This document shows, piece by piece, positions 11,996-60,231 of a DNA stretch of 64,000 bases. Each line of letters starts with the position of its first letter. Within the stretch, counting starts at the first letter, position 1. The notes below the pieces were generated by a model, which did no database searches, was not told the origin of the DNA, and saw only the letters and a program-made list of their open reading frames with translations. A program made the position numbers and the translations under genes. The stretch comes from a virus (taxonomy: Duplodnaviria > Heunggongvirae > Uroviricota > Caudoviricetes), in IMG/VR virus record IMGVR_UViG_3300017766_004476, positions 12,413 to 76,412 of that record. One strand, written 5' to 3'.

Positions 11996-11998
11996 CTA

Positions 11999-12668: not shown

Positions 12669-12728
12669 TCAAGGAGAGTGCGACACTCTCGTCGAATGTC
12701 GCACTCTGTGAACTTTCAGACTTGCCTT

Positions 12729-13265
12729 TTAGCCGTTCGCTTCGACCGGCTGCTCAGCGATGTTTTCGACTTGGGGCTGGCCTTCCGGAGCCGGAGTGGG
12801 CTCGGGCGTCGCACCTTCCGGGGCCTGCGCAGCCTTTTTGCTGGCCTTCTTCGCGGCGGGCTTGGTCTTCTTGGCTTCCTTCGCAGCGCGCGCTTCCGCA
12901 GCCTTCGCAGCGCCATCGGACGGGGCGTTCGTCTTCATCTTCCCGTTCAGCTCGAACAGCTTGGCGATGAGCTTTTCCGGATTGGTGCTTGCCATCTTGT
13001 GCATCTCGAACTCCTGGGCCTTCTTGCCCGCGCGCTTGCGCACTTCCTCAATCGTCGCGCCCTTCCGCAGGTCGCTCAGCACGTTCTTGGGAACGTAGAA
13101 TTCGACGATTTCGTCGACCTCAACCTTGCGCCCGAGAATCTCGGAGCGACCCTTGGCCTTGTCGGCGAGGTAGTTGGCGTTGGTATTGCGGGAAGCACCG
13201 GTCAAGCAGCAGACGAGCTGCGGGCACTTCGATTTGGATTCGTTCTTTTTTGCTTTGCGAGCCAT
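12729..13265 (-). CDS. island gene 1: Lys-rich basic protein with AKKxAAK/PEP-rich C-terminal tail (histone-H1/AlgP-like tail)
   Basis: Start at MARKAKK. Promoter at 13335-13363 (TTGCAC-N17-TATCTT) with ~70-nt leader. The antisense 336-aa plus ORF is low-complexity and rejected. Confidence 0.55.
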   Translation of the reverse strand: MARKAKKNESKSKCPQLVCCLTGASRNTNANYLADKAKGRSEILGRKVEVDEIVEFYVPKNVLSDLRKGATIEEVRKRAGKKAQEFEMHKMASTNPEKLIAKLFELNGKMKTNAPSDGAAKAAEARAAKEAKKTKPAAKKASKKAAQAPEGATPEPTPAPEGQPQVENIAEQPVEANG

Positions 13266-13334
13266 ATGTTTGGTTCTTTCTATTTGTTGTTGTTTGTTTG
13301 CTTTACTACTATTCAGCACTTAGCTGATGTTGAT

Positions 13335-13363
13335 AAGATATGTTCTATTTTCGTTCTGTGCAA
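13335..13363 (-). promoter_or_regulatory. island promoter TTGCAC-N17-TATCTT
   Basis: Exact spacing. Confidence 0.4.
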
Positions 13364-13513
13364 CTTTATTTTGAACTTTTTTTCACTTTTGTTTAGCTTA
13401 GTGTTTCTTATCTACATCGTGCGCAAGCACTTTCTTATGCACCAATCTATATGCTTATTAATAACTAGCAAGAAAAATCTGAATAAAAAGTTCACGAAAT
13501 CCCGAATAAAAGC

Positions 13514-13541
13514 TTGCATCCCGGAGAAATATCGCTATAAT
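13514..13541 (+). promoter_or_regulatory. sigma70-like promoter TTGCAT-N16-TATAAT driving a 12-codon ORF and a structured RNA
   Basis: Followed by a perfect SD AAGGAG (13554-13559) and ATG at 13565 (MLRMRSAHDKRS*, 13565-13603). Confidence 0.45.
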
Positions 13542-13708
13542 ATGTTCTCTTTTAAGGAGTTCTAATGTTGAGAATGAGATCCGCTCATGATAAGAGATCT
13601 TAATCGGATCAGATTAGGGATGGGGCTCTGGGTTGCGGAGTGCAGATGTGGATAAGGTCTGAGGCCTCCCGGCTGCGGATCTGGCTCCGGTCCGGATGCA
13701 GCTCGGCA

Positions 13709-13785
13709 TTCAGGGAACGCGCTCTGCAGAGAAATCAGATTTACTTGAATGATTTTTGATTTCTCTGCAGAGCGCGTTCCCTGAA
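13709..13785. repeat. 29-bp perfect inverted repeat (arms 13709-13737 and 13757-13785) with a 19-nt loop
   Basis: TTCAGGGAACGCGCTCTGCAGAGAAATCA / TGATTTCTCTGCAGAGCGCGTTCCCTGAA, exact reverse complements. Confidence 0.9.
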
Positions 13786-14283
13786 AGAACACAGCGCGCC
13801 CGAATAAAAGCTTGATTATCCCTATAATGCGAGAACACTGTGCACTTTAATGATTCTCTGAGGCCTTTGTTCTAAGTCGTAAAGGTATGAATCACTGTGT
13901 TTGTATATGAAATGAAACAAACCTATTTAGAACAAAAGCTACATAGGGATCCGCAGGGGTTAAAAGATATGTCTGACTCGGTAGATATGTAATGAAGAGG
14001 AAGCGCTGAGGAGAGCCTGGCGGGGCAGAGAGTTCTGATACGTGTGTACGCGGTTCTGATAACGTGACGCGGGTATCAGATTGAGACGGGGCTAATAGAT
14101 AGGCCCCGCGAGGTTCTGAATATGAGGGTTCTTTAAACTATCTGAAGGATTACGGATTATAAGAGAGCTACCGGACCGAATAATGCGGATCGGTAGAGGC
14201 TTATAGGGCTCGGAAGGAGTCCGGAATATCTAGAGTTGAGAAAGTTGGAAAAAAATTATCCGGATCCGGGTACCTTTATACGC

Positions 14284-21913: not shown

Positions 21914-22027
21914 TGCCGGTGGAGGGATTCGAACTTAGCTTGTACTTCGCTACCGCTGCTCGTGCACGAGCCAGCGCCTCTCTACCTAGTTTATCAAACT
22001 AGCGCTCTGCCATTAAGCTACACCGGA
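21914..22027 (-). tRNA. tRNA-Ile(GAU)-like gene interrupted by a ~42-nt palindromic insertion inside the T-stem
   Basis: Acceptor, D-arm (GCTT/AATGGCA/GAGC), anticodon arm (CTAGT-TTGATAA-ACTAG) and T-loop TTCGAAT are canonical. An extra 21935-21976 segment (contains GCTCGTGCACGAGC) separates the T-stem 5' half from the loop. Confidence 0.5.
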
Positions 22028-25183: not shown

Positions 25184-26029
25184 TTGTTTTATAGTTTTAT
25201 AATAAATAATTGTATGAATAAAGATGAGGTACAAGAGCAAATTAATAGATTTAAGACCACAAATACTGGTAAATTTAAAAGCCTTCTATTTGATAACAAT
25301 TTGAAGCTAGTAATGTGTGAAGAGTGTAAAGTGACAGATACATATAATTCTAAACCAATAACTCTACAACTTCATCATATTGACGGAAATAATCAAAACA
25401 ATCATATTGACAATTTTCAGATATTATGCCCTAATTGTCATTCACAAACTAAAACATTTAGAGCCCCTAAAAGGGTAACAGACGATCAAATTTTAGCAGC
25501 TGCAAATAATTCTAAAACAATATCAGAAATTATTAAAAAGCTTGGAAAATATGCAAGTGGGGGTATTTATAAACGTATTGAAAAGGTTATTTTAGAGCAT
25601 AAATTGCCTATTACTAAGTATGATTATACGTCTAATAGAGCTATAGGATTTAAAAAGCCTCGAGGTAGAAAGCCTACAGGTTTGACACTAAAGACACATA
25701 TATGTAAGCATTGTAATTTAGAATTTAAACATACACACAAACGAACATATTGCTCATCAAAGTGCACCCATGATGCAGCATGTAAGTATAATATTGATGT
25801 TCAATCTGCAATTCCACTCATTAAAAAATTTGGATGGAGTCAAGCCGCAGTAAAATTAAATATCAATACAAAATGTCCTGATGTTACTCTCCGCTTAGCT
25901 GTTAAGCGCCATATAAAGTATATCGACCCAACACTTGACCTTCATGAATTATCTAAATTCAGTCATCATTCTAGATACATATATGACAAAGAAACTCGAC
26001 AGAGAATAGATAAATCTCTGTCGAGTTAA
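25184..26029 (+). mobile_element. free-standing HNH homing endonuclease (Mob-like), adjacent to a tRNA gene
   Basis: CEEC…HHIDGN…NxQILCPNCH HNH core. Sole plus-strand gene in a minus-strand block. Probable start at 25214. Confidence 0.75.
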
Positions 26030-26031: not shown

Positions 26032-26121
26032 TGGTACCACAGACTGGACTTGAACCAGCACACTGGGTTAAACCAGCTAGGGATTTTAAATCCCTTGCGT
26101 CTGCCATTTCGCCACTGTGGC
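26032..26121 (-). tRNA. tRNA-Leu(UAA), type II with long variable arm, CCA encoded
   Basis: Acceptor GCCACAG/CTGTGGT, anticodon loop TTTAAAA, variable hairpin CTGG…CCAG, T-arm GCTGG-TTCAAGT-CCAGT, 3' ACCA. Confidence 0.75.
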
Positions 26122-36408: not shown

Positions 36409-37068
36409 TTACTTAATAATTTGTCTTAGGTAATCAGGAGTTCTGAAATCAATACAATCAATTTCATCAATATCGAGACAGCGAAACTCAACACCCTGTA
36501 TGGTCATATTCAAGCGCTTGTGGTGGTGACCGAAGAACCACTTATCTGGTTTATGTATTTCCAAAAGTGATGAAAGAAGATTAGCAGTCTTATTGGGTAC
36601 TACATACTGCTGAGGTATACCGAGCCAGGTATATAGATCAAGCGGACAGTCATGAGTAATCATAACCTCAGGCTTAATCCGGGTATACATATCCACAACT
36701 TCACCGCATTGCTGATAGGAGAGCTCTTCACCTTCCCACCAATCAATAGTAGGGGTGCGGAGCGCTTTATCAATGGAATGTGCACCAGAGACCCACATTA
36801 CCTTCTCATTTGCACTGCACCCATAATCCCCTAGATAGCCTGCAAAATCTAAAGTAGCCGCAGGGTTGTCATGATTGCCGCGAATGTAATAGAAGTTATC
36901 TCCAGGATGCTCTAGTTTAAGTCTCCAATGGTCCCTAAATCCAATTCCTAGATCACCAATCTGAATAATCGGTAGATACGGGAACTGTTTACGCGCCGCT
37001 CTAAGGGTACGAAAATCACCATGCACATCACCCACCAGCACTACTTTATCTGTAAAAATGTTCTTCAT
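36409..37068 (-). CDS. Ser/Thr-phosphatase-like metallophosphoesterase
   Basis: GDVHGD, GDLG, GNHD and GHHH motifs in order. Confidence 0.8.
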   Translation of the reverse strand: MKNIFTDKVVLVGDVHGDFRTLRAARKQFPYLPIIQIGDLGIGFRDHWRLKLEHPGDNFYYIRGNHDNPAATLDFAGYLGDYGCSANEKVMWVSGAHSIDKALRTPTIDWWEGEELSYQQCGEVVDMYTRIKPEVMITHDCPLDLYTWLGIPQQYVVPNKTANLLSSLLEIHKPDKWFFGHHHKRLNMTIQGVEFRCLDIDEIDCIDFRTPDYLRQIIK

Positions 37069-37533: not shown

Positions 37534-38547
37534 TTAAACTAAAATATTCTTTTCAATAGGCTGACCATGCATCCAGTGCTTAGTAGTTTGAACATGATTC
37601 TTTCTCACAAACTTTGCGACTGATTTATTAAAGTCTTTATAGAGAAAGGATGATGCTAATCTAACTACATACCCTTCCTTCTTTGAAGTATCCATACTCT
37701 CTGCTAATTCTTTAAGCTGCTTTTCATTCCATATACCTCTATAAAGAACTGGTACTGAAGTAATACCTAACAACTCAAACCACTCCTGAGTATCATTCCA
37801 ATCAAGACACATACTATAGTTCCATACTGAGAAGCCCATAAAGTATGTAGGTAGGGTATATCTTAAAGAATGAACTGCATAGAGATTCTCTCCGCAAACT
37901 CTATAGCCTTCTGGTATATCCGATTTAATACTTGACCAGAAGTTCTTAAGCCAATTGCGACTTGCATGATTACGACTATCAACTGACCGTGCATGAATGT
38001 AGTTGTTGTAGAGTGATGAGTTCTCACCATCCATCTTCTCAGTAACTACAATCTCTGTACCTAAGAAGTGATCGAGATTATGAGCCACTCTATCATCATC
38101 CGTTACATTACCCGACCAGGGAAGATGATATGTTCGCGGATACTTAACCCATGAGGTAAATGAACTCAATACTCCACCTTGCGCTAATATCTTCTGGACG
38201 CTCTCATCTTCAAACAACTCACCTCTCACTCGTGCACCAGATTCAAGAATTGGATTACCCCACTTATCATAAATCTGATCATCATACAAATGAGGAGGTA
38301 TAATCTTCTTGGTAATGCCACATGCTTCTCGAATCTGCTCAACCGACAGCTCAGTAGTCTCTGCTTGAATATGATGAAGACCGCACAATGTTGCACCATT
38401 AGAAAGGTAATAACCTCCATCAGGCCAGAGTCTCCTCTCTAGTATATGATGAGCATCTTGACCTGATGCATGACAAATCACACAGAGATGCTTATCTCTT
38501 TTAAAAACAGCATCTCGGAATTCATCTCGGGTTAAAAGCTTTTCCAT
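37534..38547 (-). CDS. RNA-ligase-family nucleotidyltransferase with N-terminal HNH-like zinc-finger module
   Basis: N-terminus is CVICH…HHILER…N…CGLHH (HNH-like). C-terminus carries motif I EKMDGEN, motif IV EGYVVR and motif V KFVRK. Confidence 0.6.
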   Translation of the reverse strand: MEKLLTRDEFRDAVFKRDKHLCVICHASGQDAHHILERRLWPDGGYYLSNGATLCGLHHIQAETTELSVEQIREACGITKKIIPPHLYDDQIYDKWGNPILESGARVRGELFEDESVQKILAQGGVLSSFTSWVKYPRTYHLPWSGNVTDDDRVAHNLDHFLGTEIVVTEKMDGENSSLYNNYIHARSVDSRNHASRNWLKNFWSSIKSDIPEGYRVCGENLYAVHSLRYTLPTYFMGFSVWNYSMCLDWNDTQEWFELLGITSVPVLYRGIWNEKQLKELAESMDTSKKEGYVVRLASSFLYKDFNKSVAKFVRKNHVQTTKHWMHGQPIEKNILV

Positions 38548-38650
38548 AATTACCTACACGATACACAAACACGGTTGTACTTAATAATGTCATCAAGCAA
38601 ACCTCTCCATCTACAGAGGCATTTAGGGCATTGAGTTTGAGTTAAGTACT

Positions 38651-38842
38651 TCATACAATACCTAATGTAGTTGCGATGATAGCATAGATAAAGGAGAGTG
38701 CAATCATAGCAAGACAGGTAACTACTAACAACCACAGAGCAAGAAAGATCGTTGCGAGGATACCATAAAACCAGCTGATTGTCCAGATATCGCAATATCT
38801 AACCCATTGATAGTGAATTTCTAGTTTAAGCCACTTAATCAT
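38651..38842 (-). CDS. small membrane protein (63 aa, 2 TM)
   Basis: Hydrophobic. Overlaps the alternative Cys-rich ORF 38550..38795. Confidence 0.4.
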   Translation of the reverse strand: MIKWLKLEIHYQWVRYCDIWTISWFYGILATIFLALWLLVVTCLAMIALSFIYAIIATTLGIV

Positions 38843-39120
38843 ATAGACCTCGACTTTCTTTGATCAACAGGAATTGAGGATGTGTGTTGACCAAAGAGCA
38901 TTTTTTCAAGATGATATTGATCATCAGCATGAGGCTTTACCCCTAAAGAGACTGATTCTCCATAAGGTATTACTCGCTTATCCTCCCAGTCGATTGATAC
39001 AAAGCCCGCACCGATTACCTTTTTACCTCTTACAGTGTGTGCATGCTCTGCATGTTCTGGAAAGATTAACGGTACAGTAAGTCCAAACTCTCCTTCTATT
39101 GTCACATATTTAAGTCTCAT
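38839..39120 (-). CDS. hypothetical protein (93 aa)
   Basis: ORF. Confidence 0.45.
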   Translation of the reverse strand: MRLKYVTIEGEFGLTVPLIFPEHAEHAHTVRGKKVIGAGFVSIDWEDKRVIPYGESVSLGVKPHADDQYHLEKMLFGQHTSSIPVDQRKSRSI

Positions 39121-39673
39121 AAGCGTATAAATTCTTTAGGTAGTCTCCATATTCATTACGGAGCTTGGCACGAATATTACAAAGTCGTACCTTAATGGTA
39201 TTAGGAGTAGTGTTAATTCTCTGTGCAATCTCCTTAATAGGCACCTCATCAATATAAAACCAAGTAAAGATATCTCTATATTGATGCGGAAGAAGGTTGA
39301 TTATTGGTTCAATACCTAATTCTGAAACATATTGATCTTCAGCTATCATTGAAGATATTTCATTACGTGCAGATAATCCGAGCTCATCATCATCGATATA
39401 AACTTTATTTACCTCTCGGTAAGGCATAGGGCAGCGGAAGAGAGTATCAACAATCTTCCGTTTTGCTGCTACGATAAGCCACCGATGAACTGCATCTGAG
39501 TTGTGAGATTTGAGTTTAGTAAAGGAGTTGTAGAGAGAGATAAAGACATCTTGAACAATATCTTCTACATTAATAGTACCTCGCGGGCACTTGGTATAAA
39601 TGTAGTTTCGAATAGTATTTACCTCTTTAAGGTAAACTTGTTCAAACATTTCATTTATTTGTTCTTGATGCAT
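39110..39673 (-). CDS. sigma-70 family (ECF-like) RNA polymerase sigma factor
   Basis: Region-2-like DIVQDVFISLY and region-4 HTH VPIKEIAQRINTTPNTIKVRLCNIRAKLR. Confidence 0.65.
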   Translation of the reverse strand: MHQEQINEMFEQVYLKEVNTIRNYIYTKCPRGTINVEDIVQDVFISLYNSFTKLKSHNSDAVHRWLIVAAKRKIVDTLFRCPMPYREVNKVYIDDDELGLSARNEISSMIAEDQYVSELGIEPIINLLPHQYRDIFTWFYIDEVPIKEIAQRINTTPNTIKVRLCNIRAKLRNEYGDYLKNLYAYET

Positions 39674-44435: not shown

Positions 44436-45146
44436 TTAATTATCAAGGAGATCGAAGAGTGCAAGTTCAAAGGAAGCTTTCTTTGTAAAGACCTGAATAT
44501 ATTTCTTATCAATCATTTGCTCACGAAAGAGATGAACTTGCGTCAATACATCATCCGTGCGTATATAGCCGGGCTCAATATAAATTAAAATGTCACAATT
44601 ACGCAATCCTGGAGAACCCTCCCAGTAATTCTTGACGCGCTCTAATGTCCCCCCTAACTCGAATAAGGTAATCGGGCATACAGTCTCTTTACAGAAGTAA
44701 AATGTAACAATACGAACCTGACGCAAAGCATTAAACTCCCACTTTATCTGCTCTTCAGTCATCGCTTTATTAGAGATATCAAAGTCATCACGGCGGGGGT
44801 TGATGAGGGTTACCGGTTTGGTATCCCATTTGTGAATTTCTGCTATTAGATCACTTTGCCAATCGTTACAGTTCGAAATCCCCCCTGCAAGAAAAATTGA
44901 CCGAGCGTGAAGCTTTCTATCGAGCTGAACGGCGCCAGGTGGAGTAATTACATTATGATACATAATTTTACAGTTTGAATTTACAACAGAAGCACCTACT
45001 TTTTTGACATTATGCCTGTTGAGGTTACTTGCAAGTAACCCCTTAAACTTCTGAATTGAATGATTCAGGGCTGCAGTCTTTCCTTTTTTAACCGCCTGTG
45101 CAGCTGTAATAGGGTAAAATTCTTCTAACCATGTTTTAAGGCTCAT
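44436..45146 (-). CDS. nucleoside 2-deoxyribosyltransferase-like (Rcl/DNPH1-fold) protein
   Basis: IFLAGG…NP…RIVTFYFCKETVCPITLFELGGTLE pattern typical of the family. Confidence 0.5.
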   Translation of the reverse strand: MSLKTWLEEFYPITAAQAVKKGKTAALNHSIQKFKGLLASNLNRHNVKKVGASVVNSNCKIMYHNVITPPGAVQLDRKLHARSIFLAGGISNCNDWQSDLIAEIHKWDTKPVTLINPRRDDFDISNKAMTEEQIKWEFNALRQVRIVTFYFCKETVCPITLFELGGTLERVKNYWEGSPGLRNCDILIYIEPGYIRTDDVLTQVHLFREQMIDKKYIQVFTKKASFELALFDLLDN

Positions 45147-47116: not shown

Positions 47117-48091
47117 TTAAAAGAGTTGACTAACACTTTGATGTGTGTGAATGTTAATAATTGCATCTGCAAATAATTTACCAACAGTAAAGCATTGGAT
47201 GCTTGAAGTTGGAGGAACTAATCGAATCGGATGAGAAACTGTATCACTATAGATAAACAGATCAATAGCTCCCCGTCCTCCCACTTGATCATAAACTTTA
47301 TTATACGTCTCTTGATCTCCACAAAAGTGAGTAACTGCACATACGACTCTCTCAGCACCCTTTTCTTTTGCAATACGTGCAGCTTGAATAATTGTAGATG
47401 CGCTTTCGGTAAGGTCATCTACAATCAATACAGTCTTACCATTTACATCTCCGATAAAGTGATTAAACTTTACTTCACTATCACTTATGCGGCGCTTACT
47501 AATGACTGCAAGGTCCGTACCCAGAGCCTCTGCATATCTTTCTGCCCGCTTTAGTGCGCCGATATCAGGTGCAACTATAACCAGATTCTTAAATTTATCA
47601 GGATTATGGCGAATGTGGTTGATTATTATAGTCTCAAAGTAGAGATGATCGAGAGGGATATCAGTAAAGCCGACAGCTTGAGGGCTATGAAGATCCATAG
47701 TCAGGATTCGATCGACACCTGCAGCTTTAAATTGATTCATTACCAATTTTCCTGTTACAGGTACCCGTGCCTTATCCTTACGATCCTGCCGCATATACCC
47801 CATAAGCGGACATACAACAGTAACTCTCCGTGCAGATGCTCTCTTTGCAGCATCGACCATTACAAGAAGATCCATCAGTGCATCATTAACCGGCCGACAG
47901 AGTGACTGAACTAAGAAAACATCTGCATCACGAATGTTCTCATGAATCTGACAGTAAGATTCTCCGCTTGGGAATCTATGAGTAAATATATCCCCTATAA
48001 TAGAGGGTGAGTGAGACTCAAGATAACTACTCAACGTTGGCTTAATGCCTGCAGTATTACTATGTCCAAAGAAGACTTTTAGTTTATCCAT
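47117..48091 (-). CDS. prs: ribose-phosphate pyrophosphokinase (PRPP synthetase)-family protein; diverged 5-phosphate-binding loop
   Basis: Start at MDKLKVFFG. Carries FPSGES, RQDRK and MDLHSPQAVGF motifs. The canonical VDDxxDTGGT is replaced by VDDLTESAST. Confidence 0.85.
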   Translation of the reverse strand: MDKLKVFFGHSNTAGIKPTLSSYLESHSPSIIGDIFTHRFPSGESYCQIHENIRDADVFLVQSLCRPVNDALMDLLVMVDAAKRASARRVTVVCPLMGYMRQDRKDKARVPVTGKLVMNQFKAAGVDRILTMDLHSPQAVGFTDIPLDHLYFETIIINHIRHNPDKFKNLVIVAPDIGALKRAERYAEALGTDLAVISKRRISDSEVKFNHFIGDVNGKTVLIVDDLTESASTIIQAARIAKEKGAERVVCAVTHFCGDQETYNKVYDQVGGRGAIDLFIYSDTVSHPIRLVPPTSSIQCFTVGKLFADAIINIHTHQSVSQLF

Positions 48092-48095
48092 ATTT

Positions 48096-48758
48096 TTAGA
48101 CAATATTGAATTCTTTTGCTTCTTTAAAGTTCCAAGTGTTATGATCGATGAGCTGCTCAGGTACAAACATACCTTGGTTGTTCATCATATTCTTGAGAAT
48201 TAAAAGGAGTCTCTGCTCATCTTTCCAAGTCTCTGCTCCGTGGTCATCTCTCCAATAATTAAATATAGCTTGTTCAAGATCAGTTAACTCATGATGACGA
48301 CTCACACCATTACCCATCTCAAAGAAGTATTCAACGAGATTCAGTTGATTTTCTGAAAAGTATCGTAAGAGTCGATTACCCACTTTACCATTTCCTGGGG
48401 TTGATTTCTCAATGGCATCAATAAAAAATGGACTATCGCAAGAATATTCAGTAGCCTCTCCGAGAGTCACCTTATTATCAAACCGGACAAGCCCTAACAT
48501 CATCGAACCGAGAGCACAGCCGACACACTCAACTTTGTTACTCAGAGTGCACTTCTGAAGACTATCATCCTCCGTTAAAGAAGTATCATATGCATCTTTA
48601 ACAGTAACCCACAGCCACTCCCCTGACTCTGCAACAAAGCGCCCACTCACGAGCTGCTTAAATGCATCAGTTACGATAAGAAGACGCTTTTCTGCGTTTG
48701 TTGCCTTCTCGAATTTAGCATTACGTTCTTCGATTTGCTTTTTAATACTTTTGCTCAT
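48096..48758 (-). CDS. hypothetical protein (220 aa)
   Basis: ORF. Confidence 0.5.
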   Translation of the reverse strand: MSKSIKKQIEERNAKFEKATNAEKRLLIVTDAFKQLVSGRFVAESGEWLWVTVKDAYDTSLTEDDSLQKCTLSNKVECVGCALGSMMLGLVRFDNKVTLGEATEYSCDSPFFIDAIEKSTPGNGKVGNRLLRYFSENQLNLVEYFFEMGNGVSRHHELTDLEQAIFNYWRDDHGAETWKDEQRLLLILKNMMNNQGMFVPEQLIDHNTWNFKEAKEFNIV

Positions 48759-49054
48759 AAATTTGATAAGATTGAATCGGTTATAATTTCTATTACTTTT
48801 AAATGATTCTTCGGAGGTATCAAGCTTTTTATTCGATCAAATATTTCACCTGATCCCATTGTTGAATGATAATTAGCACCCTCTAATTCCATATCGCAAA
48901 TATTACCAAAATCCGATACAGTTAGAGGGTAGTGTTTTATGGTTGGAATGTTACAGCACACCTCGACTTTATCACGCTTATCTTGAAGATATGATGCACC
49001 GCAACTCTTACACCATCTCCTTACATAATTTCTATATTCTGTTGTCTTGCTCAT
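48755..49054 (-). CDS. hypothetical protein (99 aa)
   Basis: ORF. Confidence 0.45.
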   Translation of the reverse strand: MSKTTEYRNYVRRWCKSCGASYLQDKRDKVEVCCNIPTIKHYPLTVSDFGNICDMELEGANYHSTMGSGEIFDRIKSLIPPKNHLKVIEIITDSILSNL

Positions 49055-49827
49055 TTCTTTTTCTTTGATTTAGGCTTTTCTAGGTATGCAGATAATGCAG
49101 GGGTTGCTATGAGCATAAAAATTACAAACACAATATTAAAAATTACCCACTTCATACATTATTCCTCACTCGATAAACCTCACACACAATAGTCTCTAAA
49201 ACTCTGAAGGGTATGTTTTCATTTCCCGGTTGAGTGGCAAGAACGTGTGCATAGGTACATGCATCACCATGAGAGTATCGAGTTGCTACATCCTCCCATA
49301 CTGAACCGCAACTCTTTTGAATAACAAATTTAGTTTGCTTTTCCATATTATCTCCGATTTCTTCGGTATTTTGGTAGATTAGCATAGAAGGGCTTATCTT
49401 CTTTATGTACACCTTTAGGATCAACTACGTTCTTTAGCATATCTTCTTCCCACTCCTGCGCAGCGCGTTCAAGGCTTAGTTTGGCTATTAATCTTTCTTC
49501 ATAAACATCAGCAATTATAAATCTATGATTCATATTAGCAATAAGTCCGGTACTAAGAATGCTCCTCATTTTCAACATATTTGTCAGTTAGTAAAAGCTG
49601 TTTGCATACTTCTTGATGAGACATTAGACCAGATGAAATATTGTCAGGTGCACCTTCTTGAGCTATCATTTTACCTCGCTCTCTAGTCACAGAGTCCCAT
49701 TCCCATGCAATTGTCTCATAAAACCAGGGTGTAGGAATCATTGCAACTGATGACTCGCGGTGAATAGTACTTACAAAATACCATCTTACCTTACTGTTAA
49801 TGTATGACTGGATGAGAGTTTTTGAGC

Positions 49828-50127
49828 TCATGAATCTCCCTTCTCGCGCTCGAACTGGGCGAGGGCTTTGTTTCTTCCACAGTGACAATCATCAGGTAGG
49901 TTTGACTTAAGCATATTACACCAGTCTTTATGATGCGAAGATACAGCCCAATCCGCCAACTTCTGCGCCGTGTCCATCGAGATGGTTGTGCGGCGGAGTG
50001 ATTCGTAGTCCTCATATGAAACGTAGTCACCGTCCTTAGCCTCTTTAATATACGGTTCATAGAAACGAGTGGTTAGTTCGTAGCGAGTTACCTCTTTCGG
50101 ACACTTCTTAATTTCTTCTGCGCTCAT
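49828..50127 (-). CDS. hypothetical protein (99 aa)
   Basis: ATGA-coupled to the upstream gene. Three further short ORFs (49152..49346, 49348..49569, 49553..49831) follow. Confidence 0.4.
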   Translation of the reverse strand: MSAEEIKKCPKEVTRYELTTRFYEPYIKEAKDGDYVSYEDYESLRRTTISMDTAQKLADWAVSSHHKDWCNMLKSNLPDDCHCGRNKALAQFEREKGDS

Positions 50128-50663
50128 TAGTTTCCTTTCGGGGCGTAGGATTCAAGCGCCTTAATCGCCTCTACCCAACGACCGTAGTTTTTAGGTGATT
50201 GCTTATTAGCATCCAAGTATTCCTGAACTACCTCCCACGGCACCACCGCGCTAGGTGATGGGGTGGAGAGGGCATCATCAAGCCATTTTGAAGCATCAGC
50301 CATGTCATTTATATAACCAGAACATGCAGTCGGTCCGCTGCGGATTGTCGCTAGTGCGTTGCGAGCTTCCATAATCGCCTCCCTCAACGCTCGCAACTCC
50401 CCATCCTTCTGCGCGATAAGCTTATTCAACCCATCAATTTCCTCGCAGTAAGTCGTGATGATTTGGCGACAATCCTGCTCGGATTTAAAAGCTGCACTCA
50501 TACGAGATTGAGTTGCTAGGAGCTGAAGCTCAATAGCAGCGCACACATCTGCATCAACAACTTCAACTTCAACTTCAAATGACTCATCAACTCCTCCATC
50601 TTTAGAGTATGCTTTGAATTTAGCTTTATCTGTTTTTGGTGTTTCTGACATATTATCGCTCAT
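50127..50663 (-). CDS. hypothetical protein (178 aa)
   Basis: ORF. Confidence 0.5.
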   Translation of the reverse strand: MSDNMSETPKTDKAKFKAYSKDGGVDESFEVEVEVVDADVCAAIELQLLATQSRMSAAFKSEQDCRQIITTYCEEIDGLNKLIAQKDGELRALREAIMEARNALATIRSGPTACSGYINDMADASKWLDDALSTPSPSAVVPWEVVQEYLDANKQSPKNYGRWVEAIKALESYAPKGN

Positions 50664-50973
50664 ACTTTAATAAATCTTTTGCTGCTGATTCTGCATGTTG
50701 TTCAACGGATTTAGTTGCATCATCTAAGCGCTTCTTTGCTGCTTGATATTTATCTTCTAGCGTCCAATTGTCATCCCAATACTCTCTAGGCATAGTCATA
50801 AAGCTGCAAACAGATTCACTTGCTTCTAATGCTTCCTTTAACGCTTGAATATGTTTATAAGCAACCATCAGCTCTTCTTCAAGCTTACAACCCTCTTCAT
50901 AAAGCCTACTCGCAGTTGAAAGTATACCTATAGGTTCAAGAACTATTTTATCCATTCTCGGTGTATTGCTCAT
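50653..50973 (-). CDS. hypothetical protein (106 aa)
   Basis: ORF. Confidence 0.45.
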   Translation of the reverse strand: MSNTPRMDKIVLEPIGILSTASRLYEEGCKLEEELMVAYKHIQALKEALEASESVCSFMTMPREYWDDNWTLEDKYQAAKKRLDDATKSVEQHAESAAKDLLKYER

Positions 50974-51131
50974 ACTTTATGTGTTTAATTTTAAGAGGGT
51001 CCAACCCGCACCCGCGCAAAATGCGAGAATGCAAGATACTTCAAATGGGCTCTCTTTTTTTAAGATAACCGAGACGCAAGCACCAATTATAAGAATAATA
51101 GCGATTAAAATAATGCAGTTCATAAATTATA

Positions 51132-51791
51132 TTACCATCCTTCCATGGGGTGTTCTAGATATACCTGCACTTGACGGCGCAGTTCATTCGTAGGCTTACG
51201 TCCGGTATTGCGACTGCAACGAATAAACCATCTCCATCCATTATCAACTGCTCTGACACCTTGATGCCAAGTATAACAGTTAAAGTACACAAATACGTTA
51301 CTCGGTGCAGAGACTTTTATGAGCTCTCGATGCTTGATCTTCTCTTCAACCAGCGGATGCCAAACCTTGTAGCAGACCTCACCTTCAGCTACTCGAGGAA
51401 ACTCGCTGTTACCTATAGCAAATTCTGTTGGTGCAATATTTCCATTAACTAAGCACAAAAGATGCTCAGCCTCATATTCCGGAGTATCGTAATTAGGTTG
51501 CTTATCCTTACGGCTGCGCGGAATGTCATCGTGATGGTATCCCGGAATGCAAGGAAACCAACCCTTCATGAGCATATGCACGCGGCTGTCGATGATTAAA
51601 TCAGGTGCATTACGCCAATCAGGAGAAAGATTGTCTAAGAATGCTTCAGTGATAGGCCCTTGAAGCTGTCGTGCAGTCTTATAATCACAGTTAAACAGCA
51701 TCGGTTCATTCTTAATAACTGCTTCCGCAAACTGAGGGATAGCTTGATTAAGATTGACCTGTAATTCACTTTTGAATGTGTGATTTTTCAT
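51132..51791 (-). CDS. possible 2OG-Fe(II)-oxygenase-superfamily protein
   Basis: GYHHDD (HxD), distal WHQG His, and RWFIRCSR Arg. Order is compatible but the call is weak. Confidence 0.4.
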   Translation of the reverse strand: MKNHTFKSELQVNLNQAIPQFAEAVIKNEPMLFNCDYKTARQLQGPITEAFLDNLSPDWRNAPDLIIDSRVHMLMKGWFPCIPGYHHDDIPRSRKDKQPNYDTPEYEAEHLLCLVNGNIAPTEFAIGNSEFPRVAEGEVCYKVWHPLVEEKIKHRELIKVSAPSNVFVYFNCYTWHQGVRAVDNGWRWFIRCSRNTGRKPTNELRRQVQVYLEHPMEGW

Positions 51792-51943
51792 TACGTTGTT
51801 AAATTAATAGTTAGAGAGTGATAAATCAAAGTAATATATAGCTTTTATCATATGTTCTAAATGGGAAGCTTTTGTTCTAAAAGGGGTTGATACAATTTAC
51901 ATATATCAACCCCTGTGAATTTTTAACTCATTTAGATCAAATG

Positions 51944-53365
51944 CTACAATTGTGCATTCTTTCTGACTTCATCGAAGGTAATCGGGTTAACCAATTTACC
52001 ATGATTAAAGACTTCAACCATTACATCAGGTCGCGGATCATCAACCGATACTGTTGCATAGGCGCTTCCATGAGCACCTTCAACCTTAACTAGCTTCAAG
52101 CGACCTGCTTTCGATTTCTTGCTCTGATCGAGAGGAAGCTTCTGAACATCTTCCCAGACTCCATTACGGAGCTGTGCACTGCACTTGAATGCAAACCGCT
52201 GAGTGTCGCGATTTACCTTCTGGAGTAGAGCGCCGCCCTTACCGAAGCATGCAATATTTTCTGTAGCATATCCATTGGCTGCTAGAAGAAAGAGAATTTT
52301 CTGAATTCCCTTATCATCAATACCATCACCCCAAAGTACTCTCACCTTATTGTTGATGACTTTATAGTTTTTACTATTGACATATCCTCCTGGAAGAAGC
52401 TTATAGAGCGTGTCAACAATCCACAGCATCTCTTCTTCTGGGGTCTTATGGGTAGGTGTTACACTGTCAGGACGAATTACAAACAATCCATCACGGTCGA
52501 GGATCTGCTGCTTGAATTGGTCACAGACGTATTTTTCTACGAAGTTGTAGATATTGTAGCTATCTGCAACCACACTTAGAATACCTGTCTTATAAGTATC
52601 AAGCAAGCGCTGGAGAACTTTTGCTTCTCCATTATTACCCTCTGCAGTCATAATGCGGTGCTCAGTTGCAGCAACCGAATATGCCAATGTCTCAAGGTTT
52701 GCATCATAATATGCTTCTGCAAGTTCCATACCTGCAATAGTATCAGTACCTTTGAAGTTAATCAAATGAGCAGCACCACCTAGAGCAGCACTCTCATACG
52801 AACTAACTCCCCGGTAACCAAAGTCATGTAACATGAAATCAAGGAGACCTTTATCGGAAGTCTTTTCAAGATAGACCTTAATCATCTTCTTAACTTCACG
52901 GCTTAGAGTTGCAACCGTACATGGATACCAAACCTGGCTGAGAATGGTTTCAAGATAATTCACCAACCATGCATGCTTCTCATCGGTTGCTTCAACAGTC
53001 ATGAGTACATTATTGACGGGTACTACTGTACCTTCGGGGACCGCCTTAATAATGATAGGCAGCTCACCGTTATGATTCTTGAGGATGTCCATCCAGCCTG
53101 CTTCATTAAAGAACTTCTCATCACCAAAGTGACATTTGACGAGATGCTTTGCTTGTTGAATTTCTTCAAAAGATACCCTGCGCCCACAGAGATGCTCTTC
53201 AAGAATTGCCTGAAGACCAAAGAACACAGTTGTATCCCATTTGGCACCGGGACGACTCTCGAAGTATGCATGAGTGTTGGTAGTTCCCGGAGGAAGCATA
53301 TTCCAATGTCCTCCCACTTTGTAGCTATCACTCTTATAGCAAATATTATTTCCAATTTTTTTCAT
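51944..53365 (-). CDS. nadV: nicotinamide phosphoribosyltransferase family (NAMPT/NadV; alternatively Namat-like)
   Basis: 473 aa. SDSYKV, YFESR and VLWGDGID signatures. Confidence 0.85.
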   Translation of the reverse strand: MKKIGNNICYKSDSYKVGGHWNMLPPGTTNTHAYFESRPGAKWDTTVFFGLQAILEEHLCGRRVSFEEIQQAKHLVKCHFGDEKFFNEAGWMDILKNHNGELPIIIKAVPEGTVVPVNNVLMTVEATDEKHAWLVNYLETILSQVWYPCTVATLSREVKKMIKVYLEKTSDKGLLDFMLHDFGYRGVSSYESAALGGAAHLINFKGTDTIAGMELAEAYYDANLETLAYSVAATEHRIMTAEGNNGEAKVLQRLLDTYKTGILSVVADSYNIYNFVEKYVCDQFKQQILDRDGLFVIRPDSVTPTHKTPEEEMLWIVDTLYKLLPGGYVNSKNYKVINNKVRVLWGDGIDDKGIQKILFLLAANGYATENIACFGKGGALLQKVNRDTQRFAFKCSAQLRNGVWEDVQKLPLDQSKKSKAGRLKLVKVEGAHGSAYATVSVDDPRPDVMVEVFNHGKLVNPITFDEVRKNAQL

Positions 53366-53371
53366 ATAGTT

Positions 53372-53797
53372 TTAGTATTTTAAACAGATTAATTCTTCAT
53401 GTTGTGCAAGTATATTTTTAATTCCGGGCATTACGCGGGGAAGGCACATCACTTCAGGTATACTGAAGAGCTCCCACTTGCCTTTAATTTTGTCAGGCTC
53501 TCTGACAATTGGCTCTCTCATAGTCTCAGCAAGATAGAGAGTGCAGCATTCACAGGTTGCATCAGGTACCCGGTCAATCCATTGATAGTTCCGAATATCT
53601 TTCTGCCAGACAATCCGCGTCTCTTCATAGAGTTCGCGTTTGACTGCAGTGAAGATAGACTCATCATCTTCAACCTCTCCTCCGGGTGCCTGCCAGAAAC
53701 CTTTAAAGGTTCTACAGGTTTGACTTCTTTGAGCAAGCCAAATATACCCACCTGTCGTAATTATAGTAGCAACAGTTTGATTGAGCTTAGTAATCAT
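53372..53797 (-). CDS. Nudix hydrolase
   Basis: Nudix box GGEVEDDESIFTAVKRELYEETRI. Confidence 0.75.
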   Translation of the reverse strand: MITKLNQTVATIITTGGYIWLAQRSQTCRTFKGFWQAPGGEVEDDESIFTAVKRELYEETRIVWQKDIRNYQWIDRVPDATCECCTLYLAETMREPIVREPDKIKGKWELFSIPEVMCLPRVMPGIKNILAQHEELICLKY

Positions 53798-54741
53798 GGC
53801 ATTAATCCTTTCAAGGGAGTAAAGAGATTCTGATACTTCGCAGCATTGTGAGGGTCAGTAAGTTTGATAAAAAGAGGTTTGTGTGTATCAACAAACATAG
53901 TAACATTGAGATCATCAACCTTAAACCATGCTACTTCTGCGATATCATCGGCACCGGTCGGTCGACCCGAGATGTACTTTGCTGCAAACATTGCAGTCTT
54001 AATACAGTCAATCTCTCCGCGATAGCGCCAATCATCAACCTTAGTACTGAAAAGGTAGGTAATACCTCCGATTTCAATACAGGCTTCTTCTTGAACCTCA
54101 CGGCGTGCATCTGCTTCCAAACTCTCCGAACGCGGATCACTGAATCCTCCAATAAAGCGCCATCCCGTCTCATCTGGTTTACGTGCAAGAAGTAAACGAG
54201 TTCCATCTTCACTGAATACTGCGATGTCTACCGTTTGAAATGCAGTAGGATACCGCATGGCAGTACCTGCAATTACACCAGCACGGTAATCAGCATTAGC
54301 AGGGTAGTTATTACATACTCTGCGACGAATTTCCGTACCACTAGTAAAGACTGTTGCTTCATGCTCACATGTCGGATACTTACCCTTGTATTGCTTGAGG
54401 AAGCTATCACGGCTTCCATAGAGAAGAATTTTCTGATGAGCATTGAGAAGTTTTGCGATCTGGCGATCGAGATTTTTACTCCATTGCTCATCATTTGGAG
54501 TGTCATCAATGTAGTGTACTTCAACGGTGGGGAATGCTGCTTCGATCATTTTCCGCCGCGGACCATAATCGAGAGGATTGTTGTAAGTACTGCGAATGGG
54601 TGCATTACCGAGAAATATGATAACGCGGTCATGTTTGTTTACTACACTTTGAATGAGGTCAATATGACCTGCAGTGAGTTCGTGAACCTGGAAGCGACCA
54701 ACGATAGCTCCCACATCCACCTTAGGTGGTTTTGTGCTCAT
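53794..54741 (-). CDS. natV: bifunctional NMN adenylyltransferase / Nudix (ADP-ribose pyrophosphatase) protein (NatV/NadM-like)
   Basis: N-terminus is GRFQVHELTAGH (HxGH nucleotidyltransferase). C-terminus carries the Nudix box REVQEEACIE. Confidence 0.8.
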   Translation of the reverse strand: MSTKPPKVDVGAIVGRFQVHELTAGHIDLIQSVVNKHDRVIIFLGNAPIRSTYNNPLDYGPRRKMIEAAFPTVEVHYIDDTPNDEQWSKNLDRQIAKLLNAHQKILLYGSRDSFLKQYKGKYPTCEHEATVFTSGTEIRRRVCNNYPANADYRAGVIAGTAMRYPTAFQTVDIAVFSEDGTRLLLARKPDETGWRFIGGFSDPRSESLEADARREVQEEACIEIGGITYLFSTKVDDWRYRGEIDCIKTAMFAAKYISGRPTGADDIAEVAWFKVDDLNVTMFVDTHKPLFIKLTDPHNAAKYQNLFTPLKGLMP

Positions 54742-57620: not shown

Positions 57621-58322
57621 TTAAGATTGCGGTTTCTGAAAGATAAATGCCCCTACAGTTAAGAAGCCTAAATCCTTTACATCAAAGGGATTTTCCGGCA
57701 TTTCTACACTATCAGGACCTATAATTTCAAAGCCCGCGCTCTTAATAATATTTATGAAATCCTGAGGTGAAAGCCACTCAGAAGTTGGGGGATTTTTCCC
57801 ATTATTTAAGTCAGAACTTACCACAAAATACCCACCCGGCTTAAGCTTTTTATAGATGATTTTACAGCTTTCTGATAAACCGATATTCTGTGTGTTATAT
57901 CCATATTCAGGCTTAAAGTGAATAAGGGAACATCCATCAACTACCACATCATAGAAGTCGTCGAAAAGCTGGTCACTTTGAGTAAGGAAGTTAATTTCCT
58001 TAAACTCAATGTTGTCCATATCATAATCTTTCAGACCTGGAATAATTCCCTTATCTGAACAGAACCAATTCTGACCATAGTTGATATCAACATTAGTAAC
58101 ACAGCAGCACTTACTCATTAAAAATGTAGTTGCAGAATAGCCTCCACCTACATCAAGGAGTCGATTAACAGAACCCACATGAATGCGGAGTAAGTCAATT
58201 ATTGCACACCATTTAAGCTGTGCATCAAAATTGAGCTTATCATATCCATTATCCTTAAGAAGCTTATAGACTTGAGGAAATTCTGTCTCAAGATTTACGT
58301 CATTAGAAAATATCTTACTCAT
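57621..58322 (-). CDS. class I SAM-dependent methyltransferase
   Basis: Motif I LLDVGGGYS and LKPGGYFVV. Confidence 0.6.
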   Translation of the reverse strand: MSKIFSNDVNLETEFPQVYKLLKDNGYDKLNFDAQLKWCAIIDLLRIHVGSVNRLLDVGGGYSATTFLMSKCCCVTNVDINYGQNWFCSDKGIIPGLKDYDMDNIEFKEINFLTQSDQLFDDFYDVVVDGCSLIHFKPEYGYNTQNIGLSESCKIIYKKLKPGGYFVVSSDLNNGKNPPTSEWLSPQDFINIIKSAGFEIIGPDSVEMPENPFDVKDLGFLTVGAFIFQKPQS

Positions 58323-58828
58323 GTTAAGAGAAAATTATAGCAGAGGGTGTATTTATCGAGAAGGTTACCTGCTTTGAGATCTGACATATTATGAGTCAAA
58401 TCTGCCAATTTAACAATTTTAGTATCTAAACCATCTTTAATAGTTTGAAGATATCCCAGAATACATAACTCATCTTTATTCGGACGAGAAAGATATTGGA
58501 CATTACATTGAACTTGCCACCCTATCAACTTATTAGGGATCATACCAGGTAATAGCTCCATCTGAAATTTAGTGTCTTCTGCAAGGTCGTGGAGCAGAGC
58601 AGTGCAGGTAATAATTTCTAGAGCTTCTTGAATTCGATATGCTGGAAGCTTATAGATTAGAGGTGCAATTTGAGTTGCAATCTCTGCAACAGGACAGCAA
58701 TGATGAAGAAAGTAATTCAGATTTGAGTTCTTCCTAACCTGATCACCATGTTCTTTCAACCCCAAATTAAAGCACATCTCCGTGCTGGGGGTCACCATGA
58801 TATTAAAGTCACGAATATTAGGAGTCAT
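58319..58828 (-). CDS. HD-domain phosphohydrolase-like protein
   Basis: H…LHDLAED motif. Start at MTPNIRD. Confidence 0.5.
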   Translation of the reverse strand: MTPNIRDFNIMVTPSTEMCFNLGLKEHGDQVRKNSNLNYFLHHCCPVAEIATQIAPLIYKLPAYRIQEALEIITCTALLHDLAEDTKFQMELLPGMIPNKLIGWQVQCNVQYLSRPNKDELCILGYLQTIKDGLDTKIVKLADLTHNMSDLKAGNLLDKYTLCYNFLLT

Positions 58829-58829
58829 A

Positions 58830-59138
58830 TTACTTAATTGATTCGACAAAGATGATGGTACCTTCAAAAACACCCATGTTCGACTTCTCTTTAAAGGTAA
58901 GAGTTTCTGCAACATCGTTAGTAGTTGCAGGTCGTGTCAGATACCACAAGTTATCCTGCTTATAGGTAACATTGAGAAGCTTGGTGTTTGGAGGGAGGTT
59001 AATGGTCATTGAACCCCCATAGTGCTTTGCACGTTGATTGTCGGTACAGCCTACAGAGCTCAAAAGAGCTGCAATAAGTGCACAGGTGGCAATTAAAGTG
59101 AGGGTATTACTGATATGTTTCTTCATAAATTTGTTCAA
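58830..59138 (-). CDS. secreted/lipoprotein (signal peptide, LSSVGC)
   Basis: N-terminal hydrophobic segment and a Cys. Confidence 0.5.
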   Translation of the reverse strand: MNKFMKKHISNTLTLIATCALIAALLSSVGCTDNQRAKHYGGSMTINLPPNTKLLNVTYKQDNLWYLTRPATTNDVAETLTFKEKSNMGVFEGTIIFVESIK

Positions 59139-60231
59139 TTAAATTTCTTAATTGTTTATCTTCGATAGTATCGTGTAAAAGCATTCGAAATGCAAGTGAT
59201 TGTCGAGATTTGATAATATTATTTCGTATCCACTCTGCTTGTTGAGCACGAGGTAACTCGAACACATTATGAATACCAAACAGTATCCGTAGTTGTGCTG
59301 CGATACTAAGAATATCTGCATGTACCTTATAAAGACGTTGGATAAAAGATTGCCAATACTCTAAGATTTCAAAATCATAAGTATTCTCAATATAAGACTG
59401 AAAGTGATCTTTAGGAGGCTTACCAAGATTAAACCACAAATCGAGCATCTTCTTCTCAGATGCAACTTCAGTCTTGAGGTGATGGATATTCCGATACCAA
59501 TCAGATTTGCACTTATGAAGAACTTGATCATTTTGTGAGTAAACTACTACACCCTCTTCACCTTTGAGTGCTTTGATAGCATCTTTGAGAGACTCAATAT
59601 TGTCGTAATGATAATATTTCGGACGCTTAAAGAGACCTTTAACTGCTAAATTGTTAAGGGTAATTTGCTCTGCTAATCGATAGTCTTGATGATATACATT
59701 ACCAATCAAATAAAAGTCAGGCTCATAGTAATGAATGACAATTTGGTTTATAGGTGATACCCACTCAAACAAAAGAGAGAAGTCCCAATTCTCTGATAGA
59801 GGTAGAATTTGAGAAATAGTAGGAATAAGCCGCTCTTTAAACTTTTCAAGCTCTTGCCAATTTTTATGTCCTCGCGAGGTAACCAATCCTGCGCGGGTGC
59901 GGAATATAAAGGTTTCCTTATATCGTGAGACAATTAAAAGTGACCCGTCTAATTTCTCAAGAACATTACATTGTGTAATATCTGTAGGCTCGGAAAATAA
60001 TTCAGACTTCTCATCCCAATTAAAGAATTTAGGAAATCCGGCACTTACGAGCTCTCCTTTTGCATTCCACATAGAGGATCTAAAGATGAGATTATCTTTA
60101 GTCCAGACAACGGGAGCATTCTTGATAGGTTCAACCAGGAAAAGAGTTTCTCTTTCACCAGATGAAAGGAGGAATTCAATATTTTTGATACTGAATTCCT
60201 TCCGATTTAATACTGACAAGTCTCTAATCAT
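59107..60231 (-). CDS. rnlA: RNA ligase 1 (T4 RnlA/gp63 homolog)
   Basis: 374 aa, the same length as T4 RnlA. Motif I LEKLDGSL, EGVVVY and HKCKSDWY align with T4 KEDGSL, EGYVAV and KIKSDWY. Confidence 0.8.
   Translation of the reverse strand: MIRDLSVLNRKEFSIKNIEFLLSSGERETLFLVEPIKNAPVVWTKDNLIFRSSMWNAKGELVSAGFPKFFNWDEKSELFSEPTDITQCNVLEKLDGSLLIVSRYKETFIFRTRAGLVTSRGHKNWQELEKFKERLIPTISQILPLSENWDFSLLFEWVSPINQIVIHYYEPDFYLIGNVYHQDYRLAEQITLNNLAVKGLFKRPKYYHYDNIESLKDAIKALKGEEGVVVYSQNDQVLHKCKSDWYRNIHHLKTEVASEKKMLDLWFNLGKPPKDHFQSYIENTYDFEILEYWQSFIQRLYKVHADILSIAAQLRILFGIHNVFELPRAQQAEWIRNNIIKSRQSLAFRMLLHDTIEDKQLRNLIEQIYEETYQ

Follow-up and report, generated by a model that had tools for sequence, protein, structure and literature searches.

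An HNH–RNA ligase fusion from an uncultured phage belongs to a widespread HNH-Rnl family in which the HNH half is conserved no less than the ligase half

Introduction

Why would a phage encode an RNA ligase that carries its own HNH module, and is the HNH half an enzyme or only a zinc-bound appendage of the ligase? The question is raised by an open reading frame at 37534..38547 (minus strand) of a 64,000-nucleotide stretch of a Caudoviricetes contig, referred to here as the window. An earlier note, made from the sequence alone, had read this gene as a ligase-family enzyme with a KMDG motif I behind an N-terminus resembling an HNH nuclease or zinc finger. It had considered the architecture unusual and, together with a T4 RnlA homolog and tRNA genes in the window, had taken it to point to an RNA-repair capability.

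Results

Domain organization of the fusion protein

The ORF is complete, with an ATG start and 337 codons followed by a stop, and its product matches the phrog_24030 profile over its full length (aa 3-333 on 342 profile positions, E=1.1e-131). An identical protein (P0001) is present in public metagenomes. Three segments were delimited, all on the minus strand. The HNH nuclease core spans aa 1-74 (38326..38547), with C22, C25, C55, and H58 as zinc ligands and H34 (codon at 38446..38448), N50, and H59 as the predicted catalytic residues. It is followed by a family-specific linker (aa 75-133; 38149..38325) housing a D94-K-W-G97 motif, which was placed from invariant alignment columns and the ends of standalone modules. 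The remainder is a minimal adenylyltransferase (ligase) domain (aa 134-337; 37537..38148) with motifs I, Ia, III, IV, and V, in which motif I was read from the codons at 38026..38037. The earlier parsing into an HNH-like N-terminus and a KMDG ligase is borne out, with an HNH signature within aa 1-133 and a PF09414 domain that includes K171-M-D-G. An AlphaFold2 model based on 61 family members was confident, with a mean pLDDT of 91.7 and a pTM of 0.80, the latter suggesting a defined two-domain arrangement.

The module boundary is marked by homologs that contain only one of the two halves. Ligase-only homologs identified by tblastn in phages XacN1, Atu_ph07, and Phosso and in Lak phages start at about aa 135 of the fusion, the XacN1 and Atu_ph07 proteins being about 215 aa each. 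A Fermentibacteria MAG (L066) encodes a standalone HNH-plus-linker protein of 133 aa that stops at the same boundary. Because the ligase-only starts and the standalone end coincide, aa 1-133 were treated as one module and aa 134-337 as the other, and the linker was assigned to the HNH module rather than to the ligase. A viral "Endonuclease" of 139 aa in BFVD shows 39% identity to the HNH-plus-linker module. The possibility that the HNH of XacN1 and Atu_ph07 is encoded as an adjacent split gene was rejected, the nearby HNH of Atu_ph07 being unrelated and on the opposite strand. Forms of about 700 aa, considered as HNH-ligase-HD-Pnk triple fusions, were found to carry intein insertions instead. 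A promoter and terminator scan around the fusion gene gave counts no different from those of shuffled sequences.

The ligase half

PF09414 (RNA_ligase) matched aa 165-314 with 106.6 bits against a gathering threshold of 27 (E=2.1e-30). The motifs read K171-M-D-G (I), R187 (Ia), G-E220-N (III), E291-G-Y-V-V-R296 (IV), and K312-F-V-R315-K (V), and the predicted catalytic set of K171 (the AMP acceptor), R187, E220, E291, and K312 is complete. The motif I lysine and motifs III, IV, and V are conserved across family members with a "live" ligase. In the phage and virus members aligned, the catalytic residues of the ligase, like those of the HNH, do not vary down to 34% identity. The domain has the nucleotidyltransferase fold of the PF09414 superfamily, and the protein ends about 22 residues past motif V with no C-terminal accessory domain. 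With these features, aa 134-337 are a minimal adenylyltransferase domain of the Rnl2/Rnl5/REL1-like superfamily (PF09414), of the type found in ATP-dependent polynucleotide ligases.

The flanking regions set the protein apart from the named ligase families. The C-terminal domain of T4 Rnl2 is the signature of that family and is required for nick sealing; compared with T4 Rnl2 (gp24.1) and trypanosome REL1, the fusion lacks this domain and has an N-terminal HNH instead. The N-terminal domain of Rnl5 enzymes (Naegleria gruberi NgrRnl, Deinococcus DraRnl) has an OB-like fold without nuclease motifs, whereas the N-terminus of the fusion consists of the HNH and linker, with no OB-like domain. By such Shuman-type flanking-domain criteria, the fusion lies within the PF09414 superfamily but is neither an Rnl2 nor an Rnl5 sensu stricto. 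Because both the Rnl2 C-terminal domain and the Rnl5 OB-like domain are missing, the HNH and linker are likely to take part in substrate binding. In searches of the PDB, phmmer with the fusion as a single sequence returned spurious antibody matches only, and a full-length family profile matched IscB and no solved ligase. Since no solved ligase was detectable even with the family profile, this appears to be a ligase clade without an experimental structure.

The HNH half

The N-terminus reads C22-V-I-C25 ... D-A-H33-H34-I ... N50-G ... C55-G-L-H58-H59, a CxxC / HH / N / Cxx[C/H]H pattern that by sequence is that of a classical HNH. Both the beta-beta-alpha-metal fold and the combination of catalytic His/Asn/His with Cys/His zinc ligands, by which HNH nucleases are defined, were found in it. 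A profile of aa 1-132 matched the IscB HNH domain in the PDB (E=3.8e-5) with CxxC, HH, N, and CxxHH in register, and H34 is aligned with the catalytic histidine of OgeuIscB. PHROG HNH families matched the fusion protein at up to E=1.9e-8. The fusion protein alone fell under the Pfam HNH thresholds (PF13391, E=0.31); PF01844 was matched by 3 of 14 family members (best E=4.4e-6), and NCBIfam gave only sub-threshold matches, to IscB and PT-DNA restriction-enzyme models.

By structure and sequence, the HNH relatives are IscB, McrA, TagI, GVE2 HNH, and Cap5. In its beta-beta-alpha-metal fold and its CxxC...(D)HH...N...Cxx[H/C]H pattern, the fusion resembles McrA/IscB/Cas9-type HNH domains, but it has no RuvC, guide-RNA, or DNA-modification-reader domain and carries instead a unique DKWG linker and the ligase. 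Residues 1-133 form a zinc-stabilized HNH module with a putative nuclease site, in which the predicted general base H34, N50, and the metal-binding H59 are intact.

Conservation of the two halves

Five divergent phage and virus members (identity down to 34%), one of them an archaeal virus, share seven invariant HNH residues (C22, C25, H33, H34, N50, C55, and H59) and have H or C at position 58. The same seven residues are invariant in the 46 genome and phage sequences having the N-terminus. Over all sequences examined, position 58 is mostly H or C and is R in four, and the DKWG motif is near-invariant apart from D94, which is T in 2 of the 46. Among members with a live ligase, the HNH core had the highest mean pairwise identity (0.58), followed by the linker (0.56) and the ligase domain (0.49); by this measure the HNH half is conserved no less than the ligase half.

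A Bacteroidota clade centered on Saprospiraceae/Lewinellaceae, comprising about 30 clusters, has lost the ligase catalytic residues. All 23 representatives examined have lost E220 and have retained every HNH position and DKWG; none has both K171 and D173, and motifs IV and V are scrambled or truncated. A ligase-shaped domain is still attached to the HNH in this clade. The clade includes the isolate Haliscomenobacter hydrossis, whose protein is named "HNH endonuclease" at NCBI. With the HNH residues intact while the ligase residues are scrambled, the nuclease site appears to be maintained independently of ligase chemistry, which argues for a function of the HNH itself and against the N-terminus being a passive zinc ribbon. 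The earlier note had allowed that this region might simply be a structural Zn ribbon of the ligase clade. The N-terminal module is indeed common to the clade, but its HNH residues do not vary even where the ligase is dead. The relative conservation of the halves, and the retention of all HNH residues beside a dead ligase in the Saprospiraceae-centered clade, are what the present analysis adds.

The ligase site also bears marks of constraint. Several lineages carry an intein (Hint + LAGLIDADG) precisely inside motif I (KMDGE/C...HN/C, with slashes at the junctions). Inteins usually settle at strongly constrained catalytic sites, and because these were inserted exactly in motif I, the ligase site is probably important wherever it is intact.

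Spread and earlier descriptions of the fusion

A large protein database contains at least 7,718 homologs of the fusion. The best 120 of these are all full-length (332-408 aa, mostly about 340 aa) with 61-66% identity, and among the matches listed no protein was more than 66% identical. By tblastn, 17 phage records gave a full-length match with 28-59% identity, the jumbo-phage homologs being covered to 99%; identities in a MAFFT alignment with phage and virus members were 34-60%. Full-length copies are present in the cultured jumbo phages Ralstonia RsoM2USA, Salicola SCTP-2, the Caulobacter Bertelyvirus group, and Acinetobacter ME3, as well as in the haloarchaeal virus HGTV-1. When prokaryotic genomes were scanned at one per species, 62 loci were identified in bacteria of many phyla and in archaea, with isolate genomes from Imbroritus, Leptospira, Devosia, Variovorax, Mesorhizobium, Achromobacter, and the archaeon Halorubrum. 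With aa 1-134 alone as the query, an exhaustive HMMER search gave 812 clusters at 50% identity. Megablast of positions 36000-40000 against GenBank phages gave no match and hence no near-identical phage.

The architecture has also been described before. PHROG 24030, annotated "RNA ligase", covers the whole fusion protein, and the HGTV-1 RefSeq record names gene 233 "RNA ligase" and adds "HNH endonuclease domain" in a note. Iyer et al. 2021 (PMC7824862) report that some Rnl2-family ligases have N-terminal HNH domains and place these HNH-Rnl fusions among phage RNA-repair ligases; they cite Burroughs & Aravind 2016 for the fusions. Known fusions (HGTV-1 gene 233, CcrBL9 gp226, ME3 gp200, and RsoM2USA_242) have the same two-module architecture of about 340 aa and share with the window protein the linker motif, all predicted catalytic residues, and a full-length collinear alignment. 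The window protein, from an uncultured phage contig, differs from them in sequence only. The view that the architecture is unusual is thus contradicted by the homolog counts and by these annotations; it is already known and common, with a fixed domain order, ancient and widespread. A search for the same architecture elsewhere, which the earlier note had suggested as a check, recovered full-length fusions in phages, bacteria, and archaea. Papers on cyanobacterial tRNA arrays in which HNH and RNA ligase are both mentioned deal with separate genes rather than this fusion and were set aside. For this large family, no solved structure was found, and a literature search found no biochemical study of any member.

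Gene context in the window

The HNH-ligase gene is one of a series of small genes pointing the same way, as is typical of phage accessory regions; the minus strand carries 39 of the ORFs of at least 150 aa in the window and the plus strand 12. Upstream are a 34-aa mini-ORF with a CxxC...CxxC pattern, a small membrane-like ORF, and an ECF-like sigma factor (39110..39673). Two genes downstream, past a 96-aa ORF, is a calcineurin-like metallophosphoesterase (36409..37068, minus strand; PF00149 E=5.6e-9, phrog_1649 E=1.1e-25), a possible candidate for 3'-end healing. This linkage was absent from the neighborhoods of the other relatives examined.

The clear RnlA that the earlier note had recognized was confirmed as a T4 Rnl1 (RnlA) homolog of 374 aa (59107..60231, minus strand), which matched PF09511 with 54.9 bits against a gathering threshold of 28.3 (E=1.5e-14) and phrog_562 with E=7.4e-37. 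The phrog_562 annotation is "RNA ligase and tail fiber attachment catalyst". This gene is 21 kb from the HNH-ligase gene, and immediately downstream of it is an HD-domain phosphohydrolase (58319..58915, minus strand; PF01966 E=1.1e-5, phrog_990 E=1.5e-15) that may be another end-healing enzyme. A Walker-A scan of the 64-kb window revealed no P-loop polynucleotide kinase (Pnk), and no HD-Pnk was found in it. As for the tRNA genes, there is one canonical tRNA, a tRNA-Leu(UAA) at 26032..26121 (minus strand; ARAGORN, and Rfam with 55.4 bits), but not a set, the other Rfam match being an aberrant tRNA-like sequence of 114 nt.

Neighbors of homologs elsewhere

Across 49 genome loci, no universal neighbor of the HNH-ligase was identified. 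The most recurrent one is an HD-Pnk (PF01966 + PF13671), which is downstream on the same strand in six of the 49 loci; in one of them (L039), the start of HD-Pnk overlaps the stop codon of an intact HNH-ligase. The L039 overlap is shared with the ligase-HD-Pnk pair of the Runella slithyformis Tpt1 / MTase-HIT / LIG / HD-Pnk cluster (Munir & Shuman), a likeness in gene arrangement. In two Armatimonadales loci RtcB is immediately upstream of the HNH-ligase. The contig of the closest relative among the matches listed (L073) has a 2H-SAK phosphoesterase two genes downstream, and in a phage contig (L006) Rnl1 is within 8 kb. These recurrent neighbors are all end-healing or sealing enzymes, none of them universal. 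The RNA-repair role proposed earlier is plausible in light of such neighbors, but no obligate partner accompanies the family. Many cellular copies are solitary chromosomal genes in bacteria and an archaeon. The family also occurs on conjugative-element-like DNA beside toxin genes, one relative is near a WGR/DNA-ligase gene, and in a few loci the fusion is followed by small HNH genes.

Discussion

We favor, with about an even chance of its being correct, a two-module break-repair enzyme of the "HNH-Rnl" family, that is, a ligase with its own active nuclease that would provide a second, Rnl2-like sealing activity beside Rnl1. K171 would be adenylylated by ATP, the AMP would be passed to a 5'-phosphate end, and attack of a 3'-OH on the adenylylated end would seal the break, with the HNH and linker taking over substrate binding in place of the missing ligase accessory domain. 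Metal-dependent cleavage by the HNH would yield 3'-OH and 5'-phosphate ends, just the kind that an ATP-dependent ligase joins. For the phage, the fusion would supplement Rnl1 in restoring RNAs, tRNAs above all, that are broken by host ribonuclease defenses, and end healing may come from other phosphoesterases or kinases or from trimming by the HNH. The invariant residues of both modules, the fixed domain order, the conserved linker, and the repair genes found nearby speak for break repair. The lack of a universal gene partner, the many solitary cellular copies, and the lack of a polynucleotide kinase in the window speak against it. Characterized HNH enzymes are, moreover, overwhelmingly DNases, a poor fit to RNA repair. 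According to PMC6097658, the Runella LIG, whose arrangement beside HD-Pnk resembles that of the L039 fusion, self-adenylylated but sealed none of the tested 3'-OH/5'-PO4 substrates. Because both modules occur standalone without an adjacent partner, coupling of HNH and ligase is not obligatory. The cut-and-rejoin enzyme that the earlier note had offered as one possibility is speculative. If the modules are coupled, the fusion would be a compact heal-and-seal enzyme, relevant to the escape of phages from tRNA-cleaving defenses.

A tighter form of coupling, which we consider unlikely, is a single-polypeptide break processor in which both modules act on one substrate, the HNH trimming the ends and the ligase sealing them without a kinase or phosphatase. 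The ligase fold would sense a broken or nicked end, and the HNH would remove the nucleotide bearing a 2',3'-cyclic phosphate or a 5'-OH to generate 3'-OH and 5'-PO4 ends; the dead-ligase clade would then keep the ligase fold purely as a break sensor for the nuclease. It is possible, if somewhat unlikely, that the two activities on the polypeptide are instead unrelated and share no substrate, the HNH attacking host or competing-phage DNA and the ligase repairing RNA, as proposed by Iyer, Aravind and colleagues (PMC7824862). The HNH relatives listed above are DNases, each module is known standalone, and the occurrence beside toxin genes on conjugative-element-like DNA would suit such a role. However, the domain order is fixed and the linker conserved across thousands of sequences and three host domains, a partnership that differs from polyvalent proteins with their shuffled sets of domains. 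The persistence of the ligase fold in the dead-ligase clade suggests that the fold serves the nuclease, and for cells with solitary chromosomal copies, in which no immunity partner was seen, a free DNase would be a hazard.

An enzyme working at the DNA level is decidedly unlikely in our estimate: here the HNH would nick or resolve DNA and the ligase would seal 3'-OH/5'-P nicks in replication, recombination, or repair rather than in RNA repair. Branched or damaged DNA and ribonucleotide-containing nicks are examples of the substrates envisaged. Such a role would accord with HNH homologs being DNA nucleases, with the relative near the WGR/DNA-ligase gene, and with Rnl2- and Rnl5-type ligases acting on duplex nicks. 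HD-Pnk, the most recurrent neighbor, is described as a DNA/RNA end-healing enzyme in a title cited in PMC6097658, which points the same way. We regard it as quite improbable that the HNH is catalytically silent and serves only as a zinc-stabilized nucleic-acid-binding or specificity domain for the ligase. The sub-threshold Pfam scores of the fusion protein alone and the need for a binding module in a ligase without any other accessory domain would be explained, but a structural role would not require H34, N50, and H59 to be invariant in every sequence examined, nor the HNH to stay unchanged where the ligase is dead or to exist alone. Phages commonly carry free-standing HNH homing endonucleases, the window encodes one of them (25184..26029), and small HNH genes are found after the fusion at a few loci. 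That the HNH is itself a selfish homing endonuclease, fused to the ligase gene and only promoting its spread, is nevertheless very improbable. Homing endonucleases are sporadic and fast-evolving, whereas this HNH is the most conserved part of the protein, keeps a fixed place beside the conserved linker, and is found in solitary genes on the chromosomes of bacteria and of one archaeon.

Because the HNH catalytic residues are more strictly conserved than those of the ligase, and because a whole clade has given up ligase chemistry but not the HNH, the nuclease merits experimental study no less than the ligase does, and the cultured phages with homologs (RsoM2USA, CcrBL9, and ME3) make the role of the fusion testable. 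Compared with the T4 system of tRNA repair by Pnkp and Rnl1, this phage has the Rnl1 homolog and candidate phosphoesterases (HD and metallophosphoesterase) but no P-loop polynucleotide kinase in the 64-kb window. The HNH-ligase fusion is not an Rnl1, and T4 has no counterpart of it. The window also contains an NAD+ salvage set (NAMPT, NMNAT-Nudix, and PRPP synthetase), SPFH, SprT, and a histidine phosphatase, which are typical accessory genes of large phages.

Variation in the ligase and linker regions of HNH-ligase homologs

Homologs of the HNH-ligase, the 337-aa fusion protein encoded at 37534..38547 (-), include a clade from Saprospiraceae/Lewinellaceae, comprising loci L056, L059-L064 and L076 (Haliscomenobacter hydrossis, CP002691) and the database proteins P0271-P0297. 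In these proteins of approximately 300 aa, the residues of the HNH module and of the DKWG linker motif are all invariant, and the ligase catalytic residues corresponding to K171/D173, E220, E291 and K312 are lost. On the basis of these residue patterns, the clade is predicted to join a pseudo-ligase to a live nuclease. The gene for HD-Pnk, an end-healing enzyme (PF01966 and PF13671), lies downstream in five MAG loci of the clade, and the copy in the Haliscomenobacter hydrossis isolate is a solitary gene.

Five metagenome homologs carry an intein. In P0121, P0156, P0187 and P0198 (approximately 700 aa), it is composed of a Hint domain and a LAGLIDADG homing endonuclease, and P0154 (530 aa) harbors a mini-intein. 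The insertion site in all five is exactly within ligase motif I (...EKMDGE|C...VHN|C(T/S)...). To our knowledge, no Rnl2-like RNA ligase has previously been reported to contain an intein. A different insertion was found in P0205 (520 aa), in which a low-complexity segment of approximately 175 aa rich in Ser, Arg, Asp and Glu is placed in the linker directly before DKWG; a long spacer between the HNH and ligase modules is evidently tolerated. The HNH module and linker were also identified as a standalone protein of 133 aa in a Fermentibacteria MAG (within 5447..7753 of locus L066), flanked, as judged by eye from sequence, by a RelA/SpoT-like HD protein and a 435-aa PIN/PhoH-like protein.

Other features of the window

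Within the window, the HNH-ligase start codon lies 2 nt after the end of a putative mini-ORF of 34 aa (approximately 38550..38654, (-)) with two CxxC pairs (MKYLTQTQCPKCLCRWRGLLDDIIKYNRVCVSCR), which is itself preceded by a putative hydrophobic ORF of 63 aa (38651..38842, (-)). A free-standing HNH endonuclease of 281 aa (25184..26029, (+); phrog_14736, E=2e-23) is without kinship to the HNH-ligase module and looks like a typical homing endonuclease; its end is 3 nt from tRNA-Leu (26032..26121) on the opposite strand. A tRNA-like gene of 114 nt (21914..22027, (-)) matched the Rfam tRNA family with 36.2 bits (gathering score 29) and was not called by ARAGORN. It has canonical acceptor, D and anticodon arms, with an anticodon loop UUGAUAA indicating GAU (Ile), and 51 nt at the T-loop position compared to the usual 9. 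This gene could be a pseudo-tRNA, contain an intron-like insertion or represent a tRNA-derived element.

The block at approximately 10000..14000 has a GC content of 0.49-0.53 compared to approximately 0.38 elsewhere and a strongly negative AT skew, and its ORFs gave no match in Pfam or PHROG. A repeated motif was observed apparently 5' of short (-) genes in this block, consisting of GTAGTTGCAC, a gap of approximately 16-17 nt and CCATACTG, closely followed by the start codon. Exact copies are located at 10656, 10940 and 11188, and a count over the whole window gave 12 occurrences of the 10-mer of the motif at up to one mismatch, compared to 2.8 expected. The block is possibly a cassette of foreign origin that has a promoter type of its own.

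Some large phages carry an NAD+ salvage pathway. Here, an NAD+ salvage set spans 47117..54741 (-), composed of PRPP synthetase (47117..48166), NAMPT (51944..53365) and an NMNAT-Nudix fusion (53794..54741), with a nucleoside deoxyribosyltransferase-like gene nearby (44436..45146).
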